Shown here: piece after piece, positions 3,214-53,963 of the stretch
How the letters are laid out: each line of letters opens with the position of its first letter
Numbering within the stretch: position 1 is the stretch's first letter
Notes under the pieces: model-generated
The model's database searches: none
Told to the model about the DNA's origin: nothing
Seen by the model: the letters and a program-made list of their open reading frames with translations, nothing else
Program-made: the position numbers and the translations under genes
From: Armatimonadetes bacterium UBA5352
Lineage (GTDB): Bacteria > Armatimonadota > Zipacnadia > Zipacnadales > UBA5352
Direction: 5' to 3'
Assembly: GCA_002411015.1 (NCBI GenBank)
Contig: DHPY01000104.1
Coordinates: 56,101-120,100 of the forward strand
DNA length: 64,000 bases

Positions 3214-3567
3214 ATGCTGCACGCACTGCCGCGCGTCATGACCGGTGTTGAGCTTGGGCTGGCAGCCCTCACGCTCCTCATCGGCGCGAGCTTCGTCGCG
3301 CTGGTGAACGTGGGGGTCGAAGGAGTGATGCGACCGCCCATCCTGGCATTCATCGCACTGACGACAGTGGTGCTGCTGGCCTGGAACGGGCTCAGTGTCT
3401 ACAGGCGCTACAGGCGCCTGCGCAGCGGTCACTGTGGCAACCAGTTCTGCCACGGACTGCTGACGAGCAGCCCGGACATCCCGGCGCACCTGCTGATCTG
3501 CGATCACTGCCGCCGGGTGTGGCCGAAGCTCGCTGAGCCAGAGCCACAGCCCGCTCCGGCCGGGTGA
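3214..3567 (+). CDS. Small membrane protein with two TM helices and a C-terminal Cys/His zinc-ribbon-like cluster
   Basis: MLHALPRVMTGVELGLAALTLLIGASFVALV... has two hydrophobic helices, then CGNQFCHG...CDHCRRVW. A GAGGGGTGAG RBS precedes the ATG at 3214. The track start is a GTG at 3205. Confidence 0.45.
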   Translation: MLHALPRVMTGVELGLAALTLLIGASFVALVNVGVEGVMRPPILAFIALTTVVLLAWNGLSVYRRYRRLRSGHCGNQFCHGLLTSSPDIPAHLLICDHCRRVWPKLAEPEPQPAPAG

Positions 3568-3591
3568 GCGCTCTCACGAGCAACGCCCTGC

Positions 3592-3618
3592 CCGCGGGAT
3601 GCGGGGGGCATCCCGCGG
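3592..3618. terminator. Bidirectional GC hairpin between convergent genes (11-bp perfect stem ccgcgggatgc/gcatcccgcgg, 5-nt loop)
   Basis: A perfect inverted repeat sits directly between the stop of 3214..3567 (+) and the stop of 3643..4716 (-). Confidence 0.45.
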
Positions 3619-3642
3619 TTCCAGCACGCGCGGTCGATCTCC

Positions 3643-4716
3643 CTACAGCCACTGCTTCATGAAACGCAGTCCTGTCTCCACCCGGATCTCATGCCCGCCC
3701 TCATGCAGGTCAAGCTCGCAGCGTTCCGCGATCCGAAGGCGCTCGTAATGAGAGCGCGTGCAGGCGAACTCCTCCTGCACCCATGGCCACCAGGCGATGC
3801 CATCGGCCTTCCCCGTCTGCGACATCACCGGCCGCGGACAGATCAGCGAGACGAGGTCTGAGTCGGTGAACTCGCGCAGCCATCCGGGGATGAAGATATG
3901 CTCCTCCTGGGTCGAGAGGAAGCAGGAGTGGCGAGGATCATCCACCACCATCTTCCGCAGCCGGTGGTTGAACCACGCGCAGATGATCCCCGCTTTGATC
4001 CGCTGCTCCACGGGCATGGTGAAGATCGTGTACGCGCCGCCGAGGCTGATCCCCCACATCCCGAGGCGCTCCGTGTCGAACTCCGGCCGCGTCTGCGCGT
4101 AGTCGATCAGCCGGCTGATCTTCGCGATCTCGAGGCCCCAGAGCGTCTTCCCGAGCATCAGGCAGAGCCGCCCGTAGCGCGCCCGCGGCGGCCCCTGCGT
4201 GATGTTCATCGGGGAGATCACCGCGAAGCCGGCCTCCAGCGCGCGCTGTGCGTAGCCGCGGTAGATGCCGGAGCCATCGTCGAAGCCGAAGGTCTTCTCC
4301 GGCGATGAGCCGATCCCGTGCTGGCAGATGATCGTCGGGTATGGCGGCTCACCGATCTTCGGCACTGCGAACACGCCCCTGCCGCGCAGGTTGCCGTAGA
4401 GGCGCAGCGTGACCCACTCGGCGCGGAAGCGCTCGTTTTCGGCGAAAGGCTCCACCAGCGGCTCCATCTCCGCCGCCGGGGGCCCGAAGTCGCCCACCGC
4501 CTCCAGCCAGCGCTGGCGGTTCGGCTCGACGGACGCGAGGTAGGCCTCCTCGGAGGAGTAGTCGCGTGCCCAGTACTGCGCCTGGCGCTCGTCGTAGTTG
4601 AGACTGAGCGCGCGCAGGAAGTCTTCAGTCTCGTGGCGCAGCAGGTTCTGGCGGTCGGTGATCCCGCGCTGGATGAGGCCAGGCGGCGCGTCGAAGGCGT
4701 TGTCGAAGAAGGTCAT
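3643..4716 (-). CDS. Alpha/beta-fold hydrolase (acetyl-xylan-esterase / dienelactone-hydrolase-like), paralog of 22018..23052
   Basis: GISLGG nucleophile elbow (GxSxG), a central PTIICQHGIGSS region and the N-terminus MTFFDNAFDAPP. It is homologous along its whole length to the ORF at 22018. Start chosen at the Met with an AGGGAGAGA RBS 7 nt upstream, which matches the paralog N-terminus. Confidence 0.7.
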   Translation of the reverse strand: MTFFDNAFDAPPGLIQRGITDRQNLLRHETEDFLRALSLNYDERQAQYWARDYSSEEAYLASVEPNRQRWLEAVGDFGPPAAEMEPLVEPFAENERFRAEWVTLRLYGNLRGRGVFAVPKIGEPPYPTIICQHGIGSSPEKTFGFDDGSGIYRGYAQRALEAGFAVISPMNITQGPPRARYGRLCLMLGKTLWGLEIAKISRLIDYAQTRPEFDTERLGMWGISLGGAYTIFTMPVEQRIKAGIICAWFNHRLRKMVVDDPRHSCFLSTQEEHIFIPGWLREFTDSDLVSLICPRPVMSQTGKADGIAWWPWVQEEFACTRSHYERLRIAERCELDLHEGGHEIRVETGLRFMKQWL

Positions 4717-49992: not shown

Positions 49993-50034
49993 GAGCTACA
50001 GAGGGCCTGGGGAGGTAGAGGTGACCGGCCGGGG

Positions 50035-50082
50035 TCTGGCACAGAACGCTAACCCCGGCCGCTTCTCGTCCTCCCAAGAGCG
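50035..50082 (+). terminator. Terminator-like hairpin after the oxidoreductase gene (9-bp stem cggccgggg/ccccggccg, 18-nt loop, followed by CUUCUCGUCCUCC)
   Basis: Read directly 40 nt after the stop at 49992. Confidence 0.35.
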
Positions 50083-50234
50083 CCCGCCCGACTCAGGTTT
50101 CGGGCTGAGACCCGAGGCATTTCGGGATTTCCCCCAGCAGGGAGTCCATCGCCACGATCTGAAATCTCCCCTCGCACGCATTGAACCGACCGTCATCTGG
50201 GTAGACTAAGGTTCGGAGCAAGGTCGGGAAACGA

Positions 50235-50486
50235 TTGGGGATGGGCGGCATGAACTGGGATGCGTACGAAGACGTCGATGTCGTGGTGGCGAGAGAGATG
50301 GATGACGAAGGCGAGGATGAGCGCGAAGCGCCTCGACAGACGCGATTCCGACTTGAGCGGGCAGTCTGCCCTCGTTGCCGGATGTTGCTCTCTGTGGTAG
50401 AGACTCGTAAGGGCAGGTGCTCGACCTGCCATGCAGAGCTGGAGCCGCGCACGGCAGAACGGCCATCGCGGCGGCTCGCCTGCTAG
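50235..50486 (+). CDS. Small acidic protein with C-terminal zinc-ribbon (CPRC...CSTC), inside the long nrdD leader; may not be expressed
   Basis: MGMGGMNWDAYEDVDVVVAREMDDEGEDE...CPRCRMLLSVVETRKGRCSTCHAE. No strong RBS. Confidence 0.25.
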   Translation: MGMGGMNWDAYEDVDVVVAREMDDEGEDEREAPRQTRFRLERAVCPRCRMLLSVVETRKGRCSTCHAELEPRTAERPSRRLAC

Positions 50487-50587
50487 CGGATGCAGGCGGC
50501 GCTCTCCAGAAAGAGTGTCGCGAGGCACAGCTGACGCGGCGCGAAACGGCCCGCCAGGGCGCGGAATCAGGGATCTGCTCAGCGACC

Positions 50588-50616
50588 TTGACTCCCCCTG
50601 GCGGGCATTGTATAAA
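50588..50616 (+). promoter_or_regulatory. Near-consensus sigma70-type promoter (TTGACT - 17 nt - TATAAA, with a TG just upstream) in a locally AT-rich island about 230 nt upstream of nrdD
   Basis: ttgactccccctggcgggcattgtataaat. This is unusual in a 68% GC context. An NrdR-box-like imperfect palindrome (cattgtataaatgagtg) overlaps the -10. Confidence 0.4.
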
Positions 50617-50843
50617 TGAGTGCACCTTCGATCACCTAATCCTCAACAGCCCTGCACCGCCTTGCTCGGGAACTCGAAGGACAGGCAGGAAGCGCGAGGG
50701 ATGCGGCGAAGGGGAGCTTCCGAAGTCGCCGTCGCAGCACGACAGGTGGTCTGGTGGCGGCTGAAGCAACACGTTCAGAGCCTTCATCGCACTACAACTG
50801 ATGCCCCCGCCGCATGCGGGGTGCCCGGGAGGCGAGCGCTCCG

Positions 50844-52874
50844 ATGGACCTCGATCCGACACTCGGCGTACGTGAGGTCATAAAGCGGGACGGCCAGCGC
50901 GTGCCGTTCGATCCATCGCGGATCGAACTCGCGATCCTCAAGGCCGGCAACGCCTCCGGTGAGTTCGGCCGCGGTGAGGCAGCAGAGCTCACCGAGCGGG
51001 TCCTGAAGGTCATCCGCCACCGAAGTTGGTCCGACAGCCCCTCCGTGGAGCAGATCCAGGACATCGTGGAGCAGGTCCTCATCGAGGCCGACCACTTCGT
51101 CACCGCGCGCAAGTACATCGTGTACCGCGAGCAACGTAAGCGTGTGCGCGATGACCAGCGTGTGCTGATAGATGCCGTCAGCTCCGTCAACGAATACCTC
51201 GAGGAGGCGGACTGGCGGGTTCACGCAAACGCCAACCAGGGCTACTCGCTTGGGGGCCTGATCCTGAACGTTGCGGGGAAGGTCACCGCGAACTACTGGC
51301 TGAGCGAGGTCTACCCGGCTGAGGTCGGTCAGGCGCACAGGCGCGGCGACCTGCACATCCACGACCTCGACATGCTCTCGGGCTACTGCGCCGGCTGGTC
51401 GCTGCGCGACCTGCTCTACCAGGGCTTCAACGGTGTGCCGGGCAAGGTTGAGGCGGCGCCGGCGAAGCGCCTGTCCTCGGCTGTCGGACAGATGGTCAAC
51501 TTCCTCGGCACGCTGCAGAACGAGTGGGCAGGCGCTCAGGCCTTCAGCAGCTTCGACACCTACCTCGCGCCCTTCGTCCGCGCGGATCACCTGCGCTATG
51601 GCGACGTGAAGCAGTGCATCCAGGAGTTCGTCTACAACCTAAACGTGCCGTCCCGCTGGGGCACGCAGACGCCGTTCACGAACATCACCCTCGACTGGAC
51701 CTGCCCGGAGGACCTGCGTAACCAGCACCCGCGGCTCGGCGATGAGGAAGTCAGCTTCACCTACGGCGACCTCGACCACGAGATGGCGATGATCAACCAG
51801 GCATTCCTCGAGGTCATGACGATCGGCGACTGGCGCGGCCGGGTCTTCACCTTCCCGATTCCGACCTACAACATCACGCACGATTTCGACTGGGATCACC
51901 CGAATACCAATCGGCTCTTTGAGATGACGGCGAAGTATGGCATCCCTTACTTCCAGAACTTCCTCAACTCTGACCTCGAGCCGCACATGGTGCGCTCGAT
52001 GTGCTGCAGACTCCAGCTTGACTTGCACGAGTTGCTCAAGCGCGGGAACGGCCTCTTCGGCTCAGCGGAGCAGACAGGTTCCGTGGGCGTCGTCACGCTG
52101 AACTGCGCGCGCATGGGCTACCTCGCGAAGGGCGACCTGTATGCGCTCTACCAGCGCATTGACGATCTGCTCGAGATCGCCTCGGAGAGCCTGGAACTCA
52201 AGCGCAAGACGGTGCAACGTTGTATAGATAATGGGCTTCTTCCGTATACACAGCGCTACCTCGGCAAGCTACGCAACCACTTCAGCACCATCGGCGTGAA
52301 CGGGATCCACGAGTGCATCGCCAACTTCACCGGCGGCGAGCATGACATCACTGACGAGTGGGGACGGCAGTTCGCGATAGACCTGCTGAATCACATCCGG
52401 GAGCGGCTCGTGGCAGTCCAGGAGGAGACGGGGCATCTCTACAACCTGGAGGCCACACCCGCCGAGAGCGCGACCTACCGCTTCGCGCGGGAGGACCGGA
52501 AGCGTTGGGCGGACATCATCCAGTCCGGCCCTGAGAGTGCGCCCTACTACACGAACTCAAGCCAGTTGCCGGTTGGCTGGACCGAGGACCCGTTTGGGGC
52601 GCTGGAGCACCAGGAGGAGCTGCAGCGGCTCTACACGGGTGGGACGGTCTTCCATATGTACATGCCGGAGCGGATCAGCTCGGCCGAGGCCTGCAAGCAG
52701 TTGGTGCGGCGTACGCTGGAGCGCTTCCGCATACCGTACCTGACGATTACGCCGACGTTCTCGATCTGCCCGCGCCACGGGTACCTTGCGGGCGAACAGG
52801 AGTTCTGCCCGAAGTGCGACGCCGAACGTCTGGCTGAGAAACGCTCTGGTGGCGCACAGGTCAGCGCAAAGTAG
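50844..52874 (+). CDS. nrdD: Anaerobic ribonucleoside-triphosphate reductase (class III RNR) catalytic core: ATP-cone + barrel + Zn-ribbon, lacking the C-terminal glycyl-radical segment
   Basis: GGGAGG RBS. ATP-cone VIKRDGQRVPFDPSRIELAI. NrdD motifs AQAFSSFDTYLAPFV, GTQTPFTNITLDW, PIPTYNITHDFDW, MVRSMCCRLQ, GSVGVVTLNCARMGY and YTGGTVFHMYM. The Zn-ribbon is ICPRHGY...CPKCDAE. A TAG stop 18 codons later comes before any RVxGY glycyl-radical motif. Confidence 0.9.
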   Translation: MDLDPTLGVREVIKRDGQRVPFDPSRIELAILKAGNASGEFGRGEAAELTERVLKVIRHRSWSDSPSVEQIQDIVEQVLIEADHFVTARKYIVYREQRKRVRDDQRVLIDAVSSVNEYLEEADWRVHANANQGYSLGGLILNVAGKVTANYWLSEVYPAEVGQAHRRGDLHIHDLDMLSGYCAGWSLRDLLYQGFNGVPGKVEAAPAKRLSSAVGQMVNFLGTLQNEWAGAQAFSSFDTYLAPFVRADHLRYGDVKQCIQEFVYNLNVPSRWGTQTPFTNITLDWTCPEDLRNQHPRLGDEEVSFTYGDLDHEMAMINQAFLEVMTIGDWRGRVFTFPIPTYNITHDFDWDHPNTNRLFEMTAKYGIPYFQNFLNSDLEPHMVRSMCCRLQLDLHELLKRGNGLFGSAEQTGSVGVVTLNCARMGYLAKGDLYALYQRIDDLLEIASESLELKRKTVQRCIDNGLLPYTQRYLGKLRNHFSTIGVNGIHECIANFTGGEHDITDEWGRQFAIDLLNHIRERLVAVQEETGHLYNLEATPAESATYRFAREDRKRWADIIQSGPESAPYYTNSSQLPVGWTEDPFGALEHQEELQRLYTGGTVFHMYMPERISSAEACKQLVRRTLERFRIPYLTITPTFSICPRHGYLAGEQEFCPKCDAERLAEKRSGGAQVSAK

Positions 52875-52994
52875 CAGGAGGTCACGCCGGCGACGCGCCG
52901 AATGGTTCTCCGAGCGGTGTTGGATACGCAGCAACTACCACACCACTGCGGTGGCGCGGCTCGCGGGGAACCGCCGCGAAGGAAGGCGAAACGA

Positions 52995-53207
52995 ATGGAT
53001 CGCGACAGAGAGAAGCAGGACGCGGGCAGCCAACTGAGCGACTCAGAGCGCACGCGCTGCGAGGTCTGGACGCGCGTGATGGGCTACTACCGGCCGGTGT
53101 CGATGTGGAACGCGGGCAAGCAGTCGGAGTATGCCGACCGCCGGGCGTTCCTCGAGCCGCCGATGGCCTACCAGACCCCGTCGGGCCAGGAGAAGCTGGG
53201 ACTGTAG
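52995..53207 (+). CDS. Stand-alone glycyl-radical domain protein (70 aa) completing NrdD; in frame with nrdD but separately initiated
   Basis: An AAGGAAGG RBS 8 nt before the ATG. MDRDREKQDAGSQLSDSERTRCEVWTRVMGYYRPVSMWNAGKQSEYADRRAF contains the class III RNR glycyl-radical signature (cf. RVCGYLG...NAGKQEE in characterised NrdD). It ends 3 nt before the nrdG ATG. Confidence 0.6.
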   Translation: MDRDREKQDAGSQLSDSERTRCEVWTRVMGYYRPVSMWNAGKQSEYADRRAFLEPPMAYQTPSGQEKLGL

Positions 53208-53210
53208 CGC

Positions 53211-53963
53211 ATGCGTGTACCGCGACTCATTGAGCCCTCGATGCCGGATGGGGAGCACCCCCGCCTGCGCGTCGGGGGCTTCGAGCCTTTGACGACCCTC
53301 GAATGGTCTGGCCGTCTCTCCGCTGTAGTCTTTCTGCAGGGCTGCCCGTGGAAGTGCCGCTACTGCCATAACGCAGAGCTCACGCCGCTGACCGCCCCCG
53401 GAATGACGCCGTGGCCGGCGATCCTGCGGGAGCTTGAGGCGCGGCGTGGCTTCATTGATGCGGTGATCTTCTCGGGTGGTGAGCCGACCGCGCAATCAGA
53501 ACTCCCCGCAGCGCTGAGCGAGGTCGCTGCGATGGGCTTCGCGGTGGCGGTACACAGCAACGGCTACGCTCCACGCAAGCTGCGAGCCGCGCTGGAGTGC
53601 GGCGGCCTGGGCCAGGTCGCGATGGATATCAAGGCGCCCTTCGAGGAGTATCCGCTCATCACGCAGGTACCCGCCAGCGGGCGTGGCGCGTGGGAGTCGG
53701 CCATGGCAGTGCTTGCGTCGGGTGTCGAGCACGAGTTCCGCACGACCTACCATCCTGCGCTGCTCACGCACAACCACCTGCGCGCGATCGCCCGGGAGCT
53801 TGCGGAGATCGGCGCCGAGCGCTGGGTCGTACAACTCTTCCGCGCGGAGGGCTGCCCGGTGCGCTGGCTGCGCGAGTCGATCGCGCTGCCCGCGCGCATC
53901 CCCGGCGAGCTGCGCGAGGAGCTTGCGGGCGTCATTACGCTGGATGTGCGGGGCGAGGCGTAG
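53211..53963 (+). CDS. nrdG: Anaerobic ribonucleoside-triphosphate reductase activating protein (radical SAM)
   Basis: CPWKCRYCHN (CxxxCxxC radical-SAM cluster), SGGEPT and the nrdD-adjacent context. Confidence 0.9.
   Translation: MRVPRLIEPSMPDGEHPRLRVGGFEPLTTLEWSGRLSAVVFLQGCPWKCRYCHNAELTPLTAPGMTPWPAILRELEARRGFIDAVIFSGGEPTAQSELPAALSEVAAMGFAVAVHSNGYAPRKLRAALECGGLGQVAMDIKAPFEEYPLITQVPASGRGAWESAMAVLASGVEHEFRTTYHPALLTHNHLRAIARELAEIGAERWVVQLFRAEGCPVRWLRESIALPARIPGELREELAGVITLDVRGEA

Follow-up and report, generated by a model that had tools for sequence, protein, structure and literature searches.

A putative two-polypeptide class III ribonucleotide reductase with a separately encoded glycyl-radical loop

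In a 64,000-nucleotide (nt) stretch of the genome of Armatimonadetes bacterium UBA5352 (here called the window, in whose numbering all coordinates are given), three consecutive forward-strand genes encode the parts of a ribonucleotide reductase (RNR) belonging to class III: an nrdD core gene, a short gene (the mini gene) whose product of 70 amino acids (aa) bears the glycyl-radical motif, and nrdG, which encodes the activase. We consider it very probable that this locus is a functional class III RNR operon and that its enzyme is made of two polypeptides, with the glycyl-radical loop supplied in trans. Judged by their start signals and their homologues, the core and mini genes are separate, independently initiated, and conserved in bacteria of very diverse groups. 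The substitution pattern of the small gene indicates purifying selection, and its spacing from its neighbors shows a tighter coupling to nrdG than to the core.

Layout of the locus

The core gene (positions 50844 to 52874) encodes a 676-aa, 76.9-kDa protein with an ATP-cone, a catalytic barrel, MCCR finger-loop cysteines, and a Zn-ribbon. Its start is the conserved ATG at 50844, and an alternative ATG lies further upstream at 50814. The core matches the Pfam profile PF13597 (NRDD) over profile positions 2 to 530 of 562 (577 bits) and the NCBIfam profile NF006126 (PRK08270) over positions 3 to 651 of 684 (1100 bits; cutoff, 548). The ATP-cone, the allosteric activity site of the core (50874 to 51143), matches PF03477 over residues 21 to 110 of the 686-aa reading (E = 2e-24; 86 bits), and the barrel and ATP-cone are those of the NrdD family, with NF006126 above its curated cutoff. 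The finger-loop cysteines are invariant in alignments of cores, as are C642, H645, C655, and C658 of the Zn-ribbon (CPRH-x9-CPKC; 52767 to 52817; alignment A2), which is the final conserved element of the core. By its motif, the core has the Zn-ribbon expected of the NrdD family, and Zn binding has been demonstrated in the Thermotoga maritima NrdD, which has a Zn-ribbon of the same motif type (PMC4493059).

Past the Zn-ribbon, the core ends with the tail DAERLAEKRSGGAQVSAK and a TAG stop codon (52818 to 52874, with the TAG at 52872 to 52874). The D-x-E-x-L-A-x-K part of this tail is kept across phyla, in tails that range from 12 to 36 aa. The glycyl-radical motif RVxGY, which NrdD proteins carry on the same chain, is absent from the core polypeptide. 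The ORF (open reading frame) map and the profile matches therefore bear out an earlier reading of the window made from the sequence alone (here the original prediction), according to which the core is intact through the Zn-ribbon and stops at a TAG 18 codons past CPKC; the length of 677 aa given there is corrected to 676 aa.

A noncoding spacer of 120 nt (52875 to 52994) separates the core stop from the ATG of the mini gene at 52995 (not 52996, as first given), and the Shine-Dalgarno sequence AAGGAAGG (52979 to 52986) stands 8 nt 5' of that ATG, in agreement with the predicted separately initiated ORF of 70 aa. The mini gene (52995 to 53207) thus has its own ATG and Shine-Dalgarno sequence, and its 8.2-kDa product, the putative glycyl-radical small subunit, carries the motif L14-x-D-x-E-R19-x-x-C22-E-V-W-T-R-V-M-G30-Y-Y-R-P-V, with the Gly30 codon at 53082 to 53084. 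The RVMGY motif lies 198 nt 3' of the core stop, rather than at the originally stated distance of about 120 nt. The mini ORF fills the missing ends of both profiles (NRDD 531 to 562 and PRK08270 649 to 681), and this exact complementarity of the core and mini matches supports an enzyme of two polypeptides.

The third gene, nrdG (53211 to 53963), opens with an ATG 3 nt past the mini stop, as had been predicted, and encodes a 250-aa radical S-adenosylmethionine (SAM) activase of the NrdG2 type (TIGR02495, 181 bits; cutoff, 131; PF04055 also matches). The NrdG N terminus is conserved from residue 1 in a related locus (L004). A dedicated radical-SAM activase is therefore present alongside, as in the NrdD family generally, and no second copy of nrdD or of the mini gene was found within the window. 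Every sequence criterion but one identifies the locus as a class III RNR, the exception being the glycyl motif, which lies outside the catalytic chain.

Reality and conservation of the split

The split is not an assembly artifact. An independent Logan assembly of the locus contains the identical split, the 70-aa protein is present without any change on 13 contigs (NCBI, JGI, Logan, and ENA), and the 90%-identity cluster P0001, which has 9 members and includes an identical 676-aa core, is represented on 9 contigs.

Among the 120 nearest core homologues, 112 end approximately 12 to 36 residues past CPxCD without a glycyl motif. The nearest split cores belong to Armatimonadota ("Ca. Zipacnadia," the clade of the window) and to alpha-, beta-, and gammaproteobacteria, and the genera represented include Magnetospirillum, Blastochloris, Thioalkalivibrio, and Sulfuriferula. 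Free-standing homologues of the mini protein are more numerous still, with 1118 clusters recovered by the 70-aa single-sequence query (47 to 121 aa in the best 120) and at least 8000 small-protein clusters recovered by a profile of proteobacterial mini proteins (54 to 154 aa in the best 120). We surveyed 83 loci from species-representative genomes and plasmids of many phyla, of which 75 were split and 8 were fused. In 62 of the 75 split loci the core adjoins the mini gene, in relative frames 0, 1, and 2 at 24, 19, and 19 loci, respectively, and the mini ORFs nearly always have an ATG with a GGAG-type Shine-Dalgarno sequence 4 to 11 nt upstream. The mini ORF has a median pairwise dN/dS (ratio of nonsynonymous to synonymous substitution rates) of 0.19, indicating purifying selection, and 16 positions are invariant in 236 free-standing mini homologues, including the Gly and the Cys 8 residues before it.

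These results speak to the alternatives that the original prediction had set beside each other, a natural two-subunit NrdD and a recently disrupted gene, and to two further checks that it had suggested, namely, whether relatives conserve the split and whether the mini ORF is under selection. The first alternative is backed by the homologues, the surveyed loci, the separate start signals, the random frames, and the dN/dS ratio. Split genes are the rule among relatives, in which the ATG and Shine-Dalgarno sequence are nearly always present and the stop codon and spacer sequence are not conserved; selection is evident in the mini ORF, and the spacer is unalignable among close relatives. A mutated or miscalled TAG in a continuous gene would account for an in-frame stop between two ORFs in one frame, and one relative on a Bradyrhizobium plasmid has a separately interrupted core. 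We give next to no credence to such a pseudogene or sequencing error: the independent assembly is identical, the exact proteins recur on 9 to 13 contigs, nearly all homologues stop at the same site, three frames are used, the small ORF is constrained, and the split relatives come from NCBI, JGI, ENA, Logan, and finished genomes. The same-site stops, the frames, the variation in stop and spacer, and the purifying selection have already refuted that explanation, and the recently disrupted gene is excluded with it.

The interrupted core just mentioned (L085, Bradyrhizobium japonicum plasmid p2S06B) is broken approximately 80 codons before the normal end, at about positions 2700 to 2725 of the locus, where tblastn returns two pieces and a stop precedes the Zn-ribbon ORF. 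This core is a pseudogene or a record error, distinct from the conserved split.

Programmed recoding, by TAG readthrough, frameshifting, or a ribosomal hop, could in principle produce one full-length NrdD, and the ORFs of the window do share a frame with a single TAG between them. Across 15 close relatives, however, the core ends in any of TAG, TGA, and TAA, and the spacers (26 to 120 nt; up to approximately 350 nt elsewhere) are unalignable, which excludes stop-codon recoding. The core and mini genes of Ralstonia overlap by ATGA in different frames, the spacer RNA fold of the window is not significant (z = 0.41), the spacer has no Rfam match, and the mini and core genes are unlinked in some genomes and phages. 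Recoding is therefore a vanishingly improbable account. The original prediction was right that the mini ORF of the window is in the frame of the core, but this is a coincidence, since relatives use all three frames.

Phage RNR genes are known to carry introns and to be split by homing endonucleases, and an intron or intein interrupting a single nrdD, as in phage T4 nrdD, would be another way to place a gap at this site. No Rfam match was found at E ≤ 1 in the spacer or in the region 5' of the operon, the spacers are short and unconserved with no significant fold, and each mini gene has its own Shine-Dalgarno sequence and ATG, while an intein is excluded by the stop codon. The intron or intein explanation is almost certainly wrong, as the original prediction had held. 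Scanning for consensus sites revealed no promoter or terminator within the operon or spacer, and neither a riboswitch nor an NrdR box was found 5' of the operon.

Gene order and coupling

The usual gene order is core, mini, nrdG. From the mini stop to the nrdG start the median distance is 4 nt (55 loci), and the two genes overlap in 19 of these 55, whereas the distance between core and mini genes is variable, from the ATGA overlap of Ralstonia to approximately 350 nt. Moreover, at 11 bacterial loci the mini gene lacks a core in the 3.5 kb around it (L021, L025, L028, L029, L031, L036, L039, L058, L059, L076, and L078). These solitary bacterial copies come from rumen and termite-gut Alphaproteobacteria and from Holosporales metagenome-assembled genomes (MAGs), and in two of them (L031, 3483 to 3668; L039, 3405 to 3659) the neighbors are unrelated housekeeping genes encoding RmuC, ribosome recycling factor, TolQ/R, and glutathione S-transferase (GST). 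The tight spacing of mini and nrdG, the variable distance to the core, and the solitary copies together indicate that the mini gene is a genetic unit of its own, closer to the activase than to the core.

Two surveyed loci depart from the common arrangement: in L062 approximately 1 kb separates core and mini, and in L065 the gene order is mini, nrdG, core.

Phage-borne copies

A scan of IMG/VR yielded 236 viral stretches encoding a mini relative, and the counts given here are from the best 80 loci (L086 to L165). The mini gene occurs with no core or nrdG within 3.5 kb in 72 of these 80, and the other 8 carry a split core plus mini. All six viral loci that we inspected place the gene within genuine phage modules: between the portal gene and a downstream gene, beside the large terminase gene (L100, 3396 to 3638); after the tape-measure gene (L099, 3489 to 3668); among tail-fiber genes (L142, around 3513 to 3662); among tail-fiber and holin genes (L155); between the DNA polymerase and clamp loader genes (L130, 3483 to 3662); and near the major head protein gene (L136). 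In all of the 60 distinct viral mini proteins (49 to 113 aa, on contigs of 33 to 70% GC), the Gly is retained, as is almost every one of the other invariant residues. The L099 protein, the sole one compared with PHROGs, matches PHROG 4132, which is listed with "unknown function," and the phage copies therefore appear to represent an unrecognized phage auxiliary gene. A tblastn search of 50,697 cultured-phage records with a phage-type mini gave no match, and metagenomic viral contigs are thus the only known source of the phage copies to date.

The phage copies suggest that the radical loop is exchangeable. A phage carrying the mini gene alone makes sense if the small subunit acts in trans on the host core and is limiting or short-lived there. 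Cyanophage psbA, which replaces the high-turnover D1 protein, offers an analogy. Phages also often encode inhibitors of host enzymes, and the phage and solitary mini proteins might instead be decoys or inhibitors of the host core rather than functional radical carriers, in keeping with the lack of nrdG or core beside most phage copies. This seems improbable to us, as all 60 viral proteins keep the Gly and nearly all invariants, including ones needed only for a working loop, and as eight viral loci carry the split core together with the mini gene.

Proposed mechanism and structural context

Solved NrdD structures show the last barrel strand followed by the inserted Zn-ribbon and then by the C-terminal Gly loop, and the buried radical glycine must swing out to meet the activase (PMC4493059). 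The split site in the window falls precisely between the Zn-ribbon and the glycyl loop. For the mini protein alone (137 sequences), AlphaFold gave a predicted local distance difference test (pLDDT) score of approximately 70 to 80 for residues 11 to 40, with a predicted beta-hairpin (residues 25 to 28 and 31 to 34) that has Gly30 at its tip and is followed by a helix. A beta-hairpin with Gly at the tip is the usual shape of a glycyl-radical loop.

We propose that the core, mini, and nrdG genes are cotranscribed and that NrdG would abstract the Gly30 hydrogen while the small protein is free or while it is docked. The mini loop would insert in the core barrel beside the finger-loop cysteine, like the covalent C-terminal loop of solved NrdDs, and the noncovalent core-mini complex would reduce nucleoside triphosphates (NTPs). 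Taken jointly, cotranscription, formation of the radical on Gly30 by NrdG, docking in the core barrel, and an active noncovalent reductase are in our judgment highly probable.

Both NrdD and pyruvate formate-lyase (PFL) are known to be cut by oxygen at the radical glycine. Since this is where oxygen breaks glycyl-radical proteins, the 8-kDa subunit of the proposed enzyme would take the damage and the 77-kDa core would escape it. The radical may reside on a consumable, exchangeable subunit of 6 to 8 kDa that is charged by NrdG, plugs into a long-lived Gly-less core, and is swapped after oxygen cleavage or loss of the radical, so that 8 rather than 85 kDa would be lost to cleavage, an idea that we rate as credible though just short of probable. 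The solitary mini genes of phages and some bacteria lend it indirect support.

Several observations weigh against these proposals. The mini profile aligns to residues 617 to 645 of T. maritima NrdD, including the radical Gly621, and this counts in favor of a two-polypeptide enzyme, but the E value of 0.2 is weak because the match is short. When core and mini were concatenated, AlphaFold gave a pLDDT below 50 over the mini region, and a Foldseek comparison of the mini model with the PDB returned no structural match, only noise. In a neighbor-joining tree of cores trimmed at the Zn-ribbon and computed without support values, fused NrdDs form four clades nested among split ones (L022/L023 [P0041], L026/L032/L041, L077/L080/L082, and P0067/P0106/P0115), so that separation is not mechanistically required. 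Finally, strict gut anaerobes (Atopobiaceae) carry the split, and the oxygen-repair rationale is therefore not specific to oxygen-exposed lifestyles.

The nested position of the fused clades also implies that the split is old and stable and that covalent linkage is tolerated. In the Armatimonadota fusion P0041, the 36-aa linker retains the core tail and the N-terminal motif of the mini protein (...CDAELKAEKRRK...ITLENSERQPCEIW...), and this protein looks like a secondary refusion. Regarding the alignments, MAFFT placed the short proteins wrongly when these were combined with full-length ones. A phmmer search of the PDB with the mini protein found nothing, and no solved structure of a split NrdD was found in the PDB.

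The fused forms and the strict anaerobes bear also on a neutral gene fission, in which the two proteins would form a stable obligate complex with no exchange and no repair or regulatory role, and phage and solitary copies would serve only new assembly. Four nested clades of fused proteins suggest that the enzyme functions equally well linked or separate, strict anaerobes carry the split too, and there is a precedent in the split class II enzyme NrdJa/NrdJb, whose C-terminal domain is encoded apart (PMC5704485; PMC4009431). On the other hand, phages with only the mini gene would gain little unless the small subunit is limiting or turned over, and the split has persisted across many phyla with a strong Shine-Dalgarno sequence on the mini gene. 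We regard neutral fission as a serious possibility, if a doubtful one.

Comparison with known systems

The canonical NrdD/NrdG systems of Escherichia coli, phage T4, T. maritima, and P. copri (PDB 1h78, 4coi/4u3e, 8p23, and 9d3x) have the same domains, the RVxGY loop, and an adjacent activase, and the MCCR finger-loop motif of the window resembles the SCCR of the T. maritima and N. bacilliformis enzymes. In every solved or characterized case that we found, however, the glycyl loop is the covalent C terminus of NrdD, whereas here it is a separate 70-aa product.

The original prediction had likened the mini protein to GrcA/YfiD. The likeness holds insofar as GrcA/YfiD of E. coli and Y06I of phage T4 are also small, free-standing proteins with a variable or disordered N terminus that provide a loop in trans to a large barrel; both are activated by the activase of the parent enzyme (PMC8683613). 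It fails in that GrcA duplicates the C terminus of a PFL that is itself intact and comes to the rescue only once oxygen has cleaved that enzyme, whereas here the core has no loop and the mini protein is obligatory, the sole source of the loop rather than a spare. All 137 mini proteins match only PF13597 (NRDD 531 to 562), and none matches the PFL-type Gly_radical family or any other Pfam family. The mini proteins are also shorter (approximately 55 to 70 aa, versus 127 aa for GrcA). The window thus has a small free-standing loop protein, as with GrcA, but one without homology to the PFL C terminus and, within the window, without a duplicate loop.

In gene architecture, a parallel is the split class II RNR of Pseudomonas aeruginosa, NrdJa/NrdJb, in which the C-terminal domain is a consecutive, separate ORF (PMC4009431; PMC5704485; PMC9669993). 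That enzyme belongs to another RNR class, however, and its detached part is a Cys-rich Zn-finger domain for electron delivery rather than the radical cofactor. The phage T4 nrdD gene, with its group I intron, and the homing-endonuclease "genes in pieces" of phage RNRs are likewise RNR genes interrupted near functional elements, but the window has no ribozyme or endonuclease at this site, only a plain intergenic spacer with a Shine-Dalgarno sequence.

We found no description of a split NrdD in the searchable literature on class III RNRs and glycyl-radical enzymes, although older papers may hold an earlier mention. In reviews, the split class II enzyme is the one case treated as exceptional (PMC4009431), and Andorfer et al. 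list only YfiD and Y06I as validated spare parts, others being possible but unproven (PMC8683613). As far as we have checked, the ORFs are annotated and present in model bacteria, yet they have not been recognized as a two-subunit enzyme.

Variation among the small proteins and the upstream region

The invariant Cys22 (codon 53058 to 53060), which precedes the Gly by 8 residues (C-E-V-W-T-R-V-M-G), is replaced by Thr in the fused protein P0106, which has a short linker; the Zn-ribbon of the core already has four ligands without it. Many mini proteins of Atopobiaceae/Coriobacteriia (such as L030 and L037) and Holosporales (L025 and L058), as well as the fused 710-aa group P0067, end in Cys-rich tails such as …EPGACCA, …KPCCCEADQ, and …KCCASAG, similar to the Cys pairs with redox activity at the C termini of RNRs of classes I and II. 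The tail of the window protein, …PSGQEKLGL, is clade specific. In seven larger mini proteins of 100 to 154 aa (P0158, P0164, P0173, P0179, P0250, P0252, and P0253), the ELxDxERTRCEVW motif is doubled, and the first copy is followed by VSQDR... without a Gly loop. The doubling suggests a separable unit that may have a role in docking or recognition.

An unusually long stretch of 850 nt (49993 to 50843) lies 5' of nrdD. It contains a small ORF (50235 or 50250 to 50486) with a CPRC…CSTC Zn-ribbon-like motif and a weak RNHCP match (E = 0.008), and a sigma-70-like TTGACT-17-TATAAA was noted by eye at 50588 to 50616, which would imply a 5' untranslated region of approximately 225 nt.

Cultured bacteria and implications

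The same arrangement is found in well-studied bacteria. Megaplasmid pHG1 of Cupriavidus necator H16 (L084) has a 676-aa, 76.2-kDa core, a gap of 142 nt, a 66-aa protein, and an overlapping nrdG (H16_RS32680, H16_RS32675, and H16_RS32670, respectively, for the three genes). In a 1999 study of H16 nrdDG, NrdD was reportedly given as 76.2 kDa, i.e., the size of the Gly-less core. The H16 nrdDG genes are required for anaerobic denitrifying growth unless vitamin B12 is supplied, according to a statement in a paper that cites Siedow 1999 (PMC2864759). RefSeq names the small ORF of H16 "nrdD," the original record has it as "oxidoreductase," and the core is called "ribonucleoside triphosphate reductase." Similarly, the genome paper of Cupriavidus metallidurans gives NrdDG as Rmet_5137 plus Rmet_5139 and passes over 5138. 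Mini matches also occur in Ralstonia (133 records), Bradyrhizobium, Paracoccus, Cereibacter, and others, and the split layout itself was verified in Ralstonia (R. solanacearum, L002) and Cereibacter (L003) records. In the feature table of the Cereibacter plasmid, the core ORF is intact but has no coding sequence (CDS) entry.

Labels of the small gene are inconsistent ("hypothetical protein," "oxidoreductase," or the gene symbol nrdD), and annotation is affected in that the Gly-less core is taken for the whole enzyme and the small gene is mislabeled. Both C. necator H16 and R. solanacearum are tractable, which makes the question directly testable. A detachable radical module would be useful for studying activation by NrdG and for engineering glycyl-radical enzymes damaged by oxygen.

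Overall, an essential anaerobic RNR would have its radical loop naturally on a separate protein in thousands of lineages, and the description of class III RNR as alpha2 plus activase would change. If the radical subunit is indeed exchangeable, PFL would no longer be the only glycyl-radical enzyme with a spare-part logic, which in this case would be the built-in, normal condition, and phages that carry the small gene alone may sustain anaerobic deoxynucleoside triphosphate (dNTP) synthesis of their hosts during infection.

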